A stretch of DNA of 420 bases. Origin: Escherichia coli. GTDB lineage: Bacteria; Pseudomonadota; Gammaproteobacteria; Enterobacterales; Enterobacteriaceae. The stretch lies in assembly GCF_003334335.1 (NCBI RefSeq), contig NZ_QOWQ01000192.1. The stretch is one strand, 5' to 3'. Made by a program: the position numbers and the translations under genes. Positions 1 through 420 of the stretch are shown here, one piece after another. The notes beneath the pieces were generated by a model that was not told the origin of the DNA, searched no databases, and saw only the letters and a program-made list of their open reading frames with translations. Numbering within the stretch: the stretch's first letter is position 1; every line of letters begins with the position of its first letter.

Positions 1-137
1 ACAACGGATTTATCAGCAACGGAAATGGCCTGGAAGCTGTGGGAGCTTATGGGGGAGGTGTATTCGAACCGCTGGACCCAGAAGAACGGGGCCGCACCTT
101 CGAAGCTCTGGATTGCCCAGATTGGCGCGATGACTGA
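1..137 (+). CDS. 3' end (44 codons) of an upstream gene, 5'-partial; codon phase begins at nt 3, stop TGA 135-137. Product not recognised; by position ahead of a P-like loader it may be the replication initiator (lambda O-like), but that is inference from synteny only.
   Basis: Frame 3 is open from the window edge to TGA 135-137. Codons are mostly the common enteric ones (ctg, gaa, ccg, cgc, acc, ttc, ggc) and G-rich at first positions. The peptide is protein-like: a Gly-rich stretch followed by an acidic tail. The competing frame 2 is full of rare aga/agg/cga/cgg codons. Frame 1 over the same region has 4 Trp in 43 residues, all arising from frame-3 CTG-GAN or GTG-GGA pairs, which marks it as off-frame. 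Confidence 0.5.
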   Translation, partial: NGFISNGNGLEAVGAYGGGVFEPLDPEERGRTFEALDCPDWRDD

Positions 138-420
138 ACAGCAAATCCGGCTGGTCTGCCGTCAGTGCATGGACCGCTGCCGGGCGGGTGAAACGTGGCC
201 CCCGGACCTGGCTGAGTTTGTTGCGCTGATTTCGGAGAGTGGGGCAAATCCATTTGGTCTTACGGTGGATGCCGTGATGGAAGAGTACCGGCGCTGGCGC
301 AATGAATCCTGGCGATACGACGGGAGTGATAAATACCCGTGGCCTCAGCCTGTGCTGTACCACATCTGCCTCGAAATGCGTACCAGAGGGATTGAGCGCC
401 AGATGACGCAGGGTGAGTTA
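130..420 (+). CDS. Lambda P-family replication protein (DnaB helicase loader), 3'-partial; first 97 codons in window. Start ATG 130 is the preferred call, with an upstream start in the same frame as the alternative.
   Basis: Frame 1 is open to the window end. The translation matches recalled lambda P motifs in order: MTEQQ vs TMEQV, PPDLAEFVAL vs PSPGQFVAWC, VDAVMEEYRR vs VDMVYEYCRK, YDGSDKYPW..LYHI vs YPDAESYPW..HYWL, and TQGEL vs TDAEL. ATG 130-132 sits exactly where both other forward frames terminate (TGA 131-133 and TGA 135-137), typical of a coupled gene boundary. No clear Shine-Dalgarno precedes it. Confidence 0.75.
   Translation, partial: MTEQQIRLVCRQCMDRCRAGETWPPDLAEFVALISESGANPFGLTVDAVMEEYRRWRNESWRYDGSDKYPWPQPVLYHICLEMRTRGIERQMTQGEL

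Follow-up and report, generated by a model that had tools for sequence, protein, structure and literature searches.

In a 2025 cryo-EM study of DnaB bound to the phage loader lambda P, the loader was divided into domains I (residues 1-29), II (about 30-119), III (120-192) and IV (193-233), of which domain I is a disordered N-terminal lasso, domain IV is a C-terminal lasso, and domain II is compact, with its five copies forming the interface that stabilises the loader ensemble on DnaB (PMC12661323). In lambda itself, genes O and P share 4 nt. In Escherichia phage phiV10, a DnaT-domain initiator (gp43, DnaT-family) is paired with a P-like loader (gp44, replication protein P), and the annotated overlap of the two genes is likewise 4 nt, or 19 nt when counted from the first ATG in frame; the N-terminal domain of that loader is thus encoded by DNA read in one frame only, which hints at the form the locus takes without overlapping. 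Where viral genes do overlap out of frame over long distances, one of the frames usually encodes a disordered protein, as in the overlaps of phiX174 or in lambda Rz/Rz1.

The window analysed here, a stretch of 420 nt, is a 100% match to the E. coli prophage NZ_AP045172.1, and its positions 1-420 correspond to 4001-4420 on the + strand of the locus, here called L001. Copies at 80-100% identity were found in ~1250 complete E. coli genomes, in the Rac-SA53 phage and in PPompW phages. Two + strand genes are annotated across the window by RefSeq: one for a 'DnaT-like ssDNA-binding domain-containing protein' (L001 3100-4137), which is read in window frame 3 and ends at the TGA at 135-137, and one for a 153-aa 'replication protein P' (L001 4130-4591), whose annotated start is the ATG at window 130. 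The former is the replication initiator, a protein of 345 residues whose Pfam DnaT domain extends to residue 266. The genes of L001 are ordered as HTH repressor, Cro-like, YdaT-like, initiator and loader, an order shared by the relatives L084-L086, and the loader gene lies directly downstream of the initiator, as in the lambdoid early-right operon and in the replication module of lambda; its partner here is a DnaT-domain protein and not lambda O. Frame 3 is open from nt 3 to the TGA at 135-137, and frame 1 is stop-free over the entire window. The frame-1 ORF, recognized as lambda-P-like from the ORF listing, PHROG 109, PF06992 and an AF2 model, has 220 codons (L001 3929-4591, + strand), begins 72 nt before the window and ends 171 nt after it, the window itself holding codons 25-164. 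In this prophage it overlaps the initiator gene by 209 nt out of frame, over its first ~70 codons, compared with the 4 nt of lambda O/P.

Several features surround these genes. The immunity region 5' of the replication genes (L001 1239-1720 and 2346-3031) harbours a RelE/RelB toxin-antitoxin pair, an HTH-domain protein and a YdaT-family protein, and YdaS/YdaT-like genes occupy the matching position in L084-L086. Inside the initiator gene an iteron-like repeat of 10 nt, (A/C)TGTCACGAC, occurs in ~10 copies in total, arranged in two clusters (L001 3228-3290 and 3499-3565, 440-770 nt upstream of the window) with a spacing of 10-11 nt, and a short A/T-rich ACAGATAAAGA repeat comes after the second cluster; by analogy with lambda O, the clusters look like origin iterons. 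A replication module 91.6% identical at the nucleotide level to those of the E. coli prophages is present in Actinobacillus phage vB_Apl-pPE4 (PP818812.1, 9461-9878), whose recorded host, Actinobacillus pleuropneumoniae, is an unexpected attribution. On the minus strand, opposite the loader, lies an antisense ORF of 116 codons with a GTG start (window 13-363), which is probably just a side effect of sense-frame composition.

Frame 1 of the window most likely encodes a full-length, 220-aa lambda-P-like DnaB helicase loader that starts at L001 3929, has the leader and domain II layout of lambda P, and contains ATG 130 as an internal codon, Met68; we put the probability of this reading at about 0.8. 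In such a protein, the variable and predicted-disordered residues 1 to ~30 would be a leader corresponding to the 'N-terminal lasso' of lambda P domain I, and window ~16-240 would encode a compact five-helix domain matching domain II. Loading of DnaB is the presumed activity of this loader, and any function of the initiator tail that overlaps it is likewise presumptive. A sequence-only reading of the window had preferred a short loader that starts at ATG 130 and is without the N-terminal segment of lambda P. The features from which it argued, namely ATGs at 130, 49-51 and 25-27, an open frame 1 and a frame-3 gene, are all present in the sequence. It was also right that the start could not be fixed from the window alone, that the matter had to be decided by homologue alignments and frame-specific substitution patterns, and that a long version entails an out-of-frame overlap of at least 113 nt; the real overlap is longer.

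Affiliation of the 220-aa product was examined at the level of profiles and structure. Residues 14-220 matched positions 18-236 of the 236 of PHROG 109 'P-like helicase loader' (E = 6.6e-63), and residues 57-187 matched Pfam PF06992 (E = 1.7e-15), while no NCBIfam family was matched by the loader. Lambda P (PDB 9oa1, 8v9t, 6BBM) shares both families and is colinear with the product over the whole length (220 versus 233 aa), although identity is merely ~18%; the phiV10 loader aligns from residue 17 to the end with 26% identity. In a phmmer alignment Thr69 was paired with lambda P Thr81, in keeping with the earlier placement of ATG 130 near lambda P residue 80. The AF2 model of the 220-aa product has residues 1-27 disordered (pLDDT below 50), then helices at 30-45, 47-53, 59-66, 70-85 and 94-104 (pLDDT 85-91), a second helical domain at 113-180 and a C-terminal helix at 203-216. 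In a Foldseek search this model matched chains 9oa1_Y and 9oa1_Z of lambda P across 199-219 columns (E = 1.4e-6), and it repeats the four parts of lambda P, namely a disordered N-terminal lasso, a compact helical domain II, domain III and a C-terminal lasso helix. As far as profile, alignment and model comparisons tell, the loader is an ordinary full-length member of PF06992/PHROG 109 that retains the N-terminal region of lambda P. The family is already known, and the gene is one of a known kind with a mis-annotated start.

The coding frame across window 1-130 was examined by counting variable sites by codon phase among relatives: 80 close relatives from IMG/VR, which yielded 48 unique sequences, and a wider set of 128 unique loci reaching down to ~50% protein identity. 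Among the 48 unique close relatives, single-nucleotide changes in window 10-129 comprised 19 synonymous and 4 non-synonymous ones when read in frame 1, versus 3 and 20, respectively, when read in frame 3 (Fisher p = 4e-6). Frame 1 was indistinguishable there from a loader-only control (69/23 synonymous/non-synonymous), and frame 3 was indistinguishable from an out-of-frame control (12/80) and differed from the genuine initiator CDS (37/34; p = 0.001). Variable sites peaked at the initiator third position in the initiator-only region (40 vs 17 and 14), at the loader third position in the loader-only region (68 vs 14 and 10) and at the frame-1 third position in window 1-129 (19 vs 5 and 1), with the switch from initiator-type to loader-type variation located at about L001 4005-4015. 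In the set of 128 loci, frame 1 showed its third-position diversity signature from ~residue 33 to the stop, and the initiator frame dominated over residues 9-24, upstream of the window; in L001 3932-4009 there were 10 synonymous and 7 non-synonymous changes in the initiator frame versus 5 and 12 in the loader frame. Judged by these substitution patterns, frame 1 is under purifying selection in the window, and frame 3 behaves as unconstrained there. Upstream of nt 130, variation that leaves the frame-1 protein, but not the frame-3 protein, unchanged is what the sequence-only reading had itself named as evidence against its short version, which is hereby refuted; the long version that it had kept as a hedged alternative is upheld.

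Frame 2 is stop-free as well, over 119 codons (L001 3777-4133, window 2-133), leaving all three forward frames open across window 1-130. A meaning for this third open frame was considered and dropped, the relatives L084, L085 and L168 reaching their first stop after 4-40 nt; to go by these sequences, its openness is probably a matter of chance in a G-rich stretch.

Conservation of the residues encoded upstream of nt 130 points the same way as the frame-specific variation. Frame-1 residues ahead of Met68 are near-invariant down to ~37-50% identity. Over residues 34-66 this applies to homologues down to 43-50% identity, which keep A34, W35, W38, M41, R48, W49, K52, N53, G54, P57, W61 and G66 nearly or fully invariant, and every one of these residues precedes the annotated Met68. 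The tryptophans among them (W35, W38, W49 and W61) are the most strongly conserved and are invariant in 23/23 divergent lineages, which contradicts the earlier suggestion that the Trp content of this stretch is artefactual and counts against a long form; an argument of the same kind from codon usage was not supported. The faint upstream similarity to lambda P that had been noticed (LWIAQI vs QWVLAF) proved to be real, since W61 of LWIAQI stands in an invariant column that includes the Trp of QWVLAF. Residue 68, on the other hand, is Met in 12/23 lineages and Leu in 11/23 (and Leu in many database homologues), so Met68 cannot be the start for the whole family.

A start at ATG 130 (window 130-132, + strand) would yield a 153-aa loader without the N-terminal third of lambda P, with frame 1 upstream of it open by chance. 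Such a start has in its favour the ATGACTGA arrangement, a neat overlap of 8 nt between this start and the stop of the initiator gene, and its selection by PGAP in many E. coli genomes, yet it is opposed by the purifying selection on upstream frame 1 (and not on frame 3) and by the Leu alleles of residue 68, and no Shine-Dalgarno (SD) sequence was found upstream of ATG 130 in this sequence. Furthermore, the codon lies in the domain II equivalent, after helix 59-66 and before helix 70-85, and would bisect that domain when the AF2 model is set against the lambda P domains (PMC12661323). Three of the five helices of that domain, 30-45, 47-53 and 59-66, would be deleted by a start at Met68; they are placed in window 16-126 (+ strand) by model confidence (pLDDT 85-91) together with conservation, and W35, W38, W49, K52, N53, G54, P57 and W61, all invariant, fall within this stretch. 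A start at ATG 130 is thus extremely improbable, and it is essentially certain that the loader begins upstream of it.

Where upstream it begins was approached via the starts used by gene callers, which give products of ~220 aa (the upstream ATG), ~180 aa (ATG 49), 153 aa (ATG 130; PGAP in E. coli) and 140 aa (PPompW records). The shorter forms of 153, 140 and 180 aa are those chosen by PGAP, the RefSeq pipeline, and by several phage records, which runs counter to the long form. However, an ATG located 43-50 codons upstream of W49 and preceded at 4-7 nt by GGAGGT, GGGGGT or GAGGT is present in 132/132 unique loci, and the mean anti-SD duplex energy is −10.5 kcal/mol at this ATG versus −5.9 kcal/mol at the Met41 site (ATG 49). 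The initiator-frame residues over the upstream start vary (His, Asn or Tyr, followed by Ala), while the xAT-G itself is kept, so the conserved element is the start signal and not the initiator protein. With moderate-to-good confidence, based on this conservation, the loader start is placed at L001 3929, inside the initiator gene, and translation would most likely proceed from the SD and ATG there.

The first part of the long form is less constrained than the rest. Residues 1-27 show no amino-acid-level constraint of their own, the initiator frame being the constrained one there, and because of this we infer their translation only from the conserved SD plus ATG and from the absence of better starts. 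Other potential upstream starts do exist, with an in-frame GTG at codon 24 in many close relatives and an ATG near codon 29 in some lineages. The argument that there is no in-frame start between codon 5 and W35 was discarded: it is true for a minority of sequences only, the present one among them, as most relatives have the GTG at codon 24. In the sequence of this prophage, the sole start between codon 5 and W35 is a minority ATG at codon 33.

This ATG (Met33; window 25-27, + strand) stands just before the conserved AW.LWE helix, and two database homologues (P0035 and P0046) are called from the equivalent 'MAW', so that a start at this place in the present sequence may be considered. Window position 26, however, is T in 7 and C in 41 of the 48 unique close relatives, the codon being ACG (Thr) in most of them, which leaves it no general start for the family; no convincing SD was found upstream of it. 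We regard initiation at Met33 as quite unlikely.

A stronger candidate is the ATG at window 49-51 (+ strand), the codon of the conserved residue Met41, from which a 180-aa loader overlapping the initiator by 89 nt would be made. It is an ATG in 131/132 loci, GGGAG lies 3 nt upstream of it in this sequence, and many NCBI gene calls of 177-181 aa, among them the 180-aa calls in Salmonella, Klebsiella and Citrobacter, begin here. But the SD in question rests on Glu39, which is conserved in only 14/23 lineages, so that GGGAG is itself not conserved, and its duplex energy is the weaker one of the two sites. A34, W35 and W38, all upstream of Met41, are invariant or nearly so in 23 lineages; purifying selection on frame 1 is in force already from ~codon 33; and a start at Met41 would cut the predicted first helix (30-45, pLDDT ~90). 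Homologues from Vibrio phages and phiV10 align from residues 34 and 17, respectively. Met41 as the sole or an additional start is therefore improbable, though less so than Met33, and it may be kept as a possible secondary start beside the preferred one at L001 3929.

The loader N-terminal domain could also be made as an initiator-loader fusion, through a programmed frameshift from frame 3 into frame 1 close to where the window begins. At this place all frames are stop-free, a few fused proteins are found in databases, and one profile, phrog_15931 (482 positions), matches both proteins. Against such a fusion, the loader has its own conserved SD and ATG, a shift of +1 or −2 would be required, no pause site in the form of a stop or rare codon is apparent, and a search of L001 3800-4700 with Rfam at permissive thresholds gave no match. 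In two of the fused proteins, P0106 (333 aa) and P0032 (291 aa), the C-terminal half of the loader is attached to the initiator N-terminus or to the downstream DUF1627 protein. They are single-contig chimeras, apparently the products of deletion or rearrangement in decaying prophages, and the merging of initiator and loader sequences in phrog_15931 is probably due to chimeras of this kind. With P0106 and P0032 joined elsewhere than at the overlap, the case for programmed frameshifting from database fusions and phrog_15931 was rejected, and the mechanism is rated as very unlikely, close to the start at ATG 130 in this respect. Independent initiation of a 220-aa loader at L001 3929 remains the preferred reading.

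With this start, the initiator gene would run on in frame 3 for 209 nt past the beginning of the loader, encoding the RAVQEIRAAREQWER helix and then a disordered Gly-rich tail. An overlap of 209-224 nt in constant relative phase was found in 131/132 unique loci, the exception being L085 with 113 nt; an apparent 73-nt overlap in another phase at two loci turned out to be artefacts (a contig end and an upstream frameshift), the initiator frame being open for 209 nt in both. The overlap is the same for initiators with differing N-terminal domains, which include DnaT-domain (annotated DnaT-like/DUF1376-like in close relatives), HTH/DnaT, DUF1376-only and Vibrio O-like types, and all of these share the same tail. 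The tail opens with a conserved helix, S-RAVQEIRAAREQWER (pLDDT 82-89), located over the disordered leader of the loader; its second part, encoded by window 1-137 (+ strand, frame 3), is a Gly-rich segment of ~45 aa that ends in LDCPDWRDD, is predicted to be disordered (pLDDT below 50) and lies over the conserved domain of the loader. The ordered segment of each frame is thus opposite the predicted disordered segment of the other. These confidence values for the tail come from an AF2 model of a fusion of loader, linker and initiator tail (per-residue confidence only).

As in the phiX174 overlaps and lambda Rz/Rz1, two proteins are here drawn from one DNA in different frames, constraint alternates between them, and the less constrained frame is predicted to be disordered. 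Unlike embedded genes, this is a terminal overlap of two adjacent genes on the same strand, and the function of the initiator tail is putative. It also departs from phiV10, which likewise pairs a DnaT-domain initiator with a P-like loader, in the length of the overlap. Our literature search found no paper describing it.

A counterpart of the arrangement is in Vibrio phage D67 and its relatives, where a P-like ORF (219 aa) shares 212 nt, in the same phase, with the 3' end of an O-like initiator, and where the initiator tail of D67 consists of a helix-like SRVSAALEKQRAEF, a Gly/Ser-rich segment and the ending DLDNGDW. The D67 loader resembles that of the E. coli prophage over the domain II region only (37% identity, residues 34-131), the similarity starting exactly at residue 34, and its C-terminal half is not alignable; no clear SD was found before the first ATG of the D67 ORF. 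In the D67 record (OZ195694.1; L168), the loader ORF spans 1399-2058 and the annotated CDS only 1732-2058, a 108-aa 'hypothetical protein', and in many related Vibrio phages the loader is likewise annotated as a 108-aa 'hypothetical protein', so that the N-terminal truncation by annotation recurs in a distant group.

Maintenance of the open initiator frame was assessed by synonymous reshuffling of loader codons. In 22/23 lineages the initiator frame stays free of stops up to and including loader residue 66, compared with 5.9 expected, and 0 of 200,000 simulations reached 22; the lineages, which are <70% identical at third positions, are not fully independent. In single lineages the probability of openness was 0.09-0.19. 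This preservation across lineages is suggestive of selection on the initiator tail or on its end position. Codon choice in the loader gives weak hints in the same direction: Gln64 is CAG in 23/23 lineages, which yields Asp in the initiator frame (naive p = 2e-4, uncorrected), and at Ile62 ATC is avoided (1/22 vs 38/86 elsewhere) and ATA enriched. The C-terminal tip of the initiator may, on such codon patterns, be functional. In window 106-126 (LWIAQIG in the loader, LDCPDW in the initiator), loader codon choice seems biased towards preserving the acidic/aromatic end of the initiator.

A tentative proposal, which we hold to be possible but rather less than likely, is that the overlap is a selected dual-coding module, in which the C-terminal helix of the initiator and the disordered tail with its acidic tip would have a function, such as recruiting the loader or DnaB, and would be tied to the loader N-terminal domains by shared DNA. 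That initiators with unrelated N-terminal domains share both the tail and the overlap lends it support. If it is true, recombination among mosaic lambdoid phages would be unable to separate the two sides of a matched initiator-loader interface.

For the annotation of this family, the consequence is that the 153-aa 'replication protein P' of RefSeq, present on at least 1000 E. coli contigs, most likely lacks part of a folded domain, as most likely do the 140-aa and 180-aa calls in phages and in Salmonella/Klebsiella and the 'hypothetical proteins' of Vibrio phages. Expression or modelling from the annotated start would cost three helices of the domain by which, in lambda P, the loader ensemble is kept together on DnaB. 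Beyond this, the locus has one moderately interesting property, its long conserved out-of-frame overlap with the initiator gene. As a clean and widely conserved case of long same-strand overlap with order set over disorder, it could be used to study the origin of overlaps, and whether overlaps lock interacting replication proteins together.
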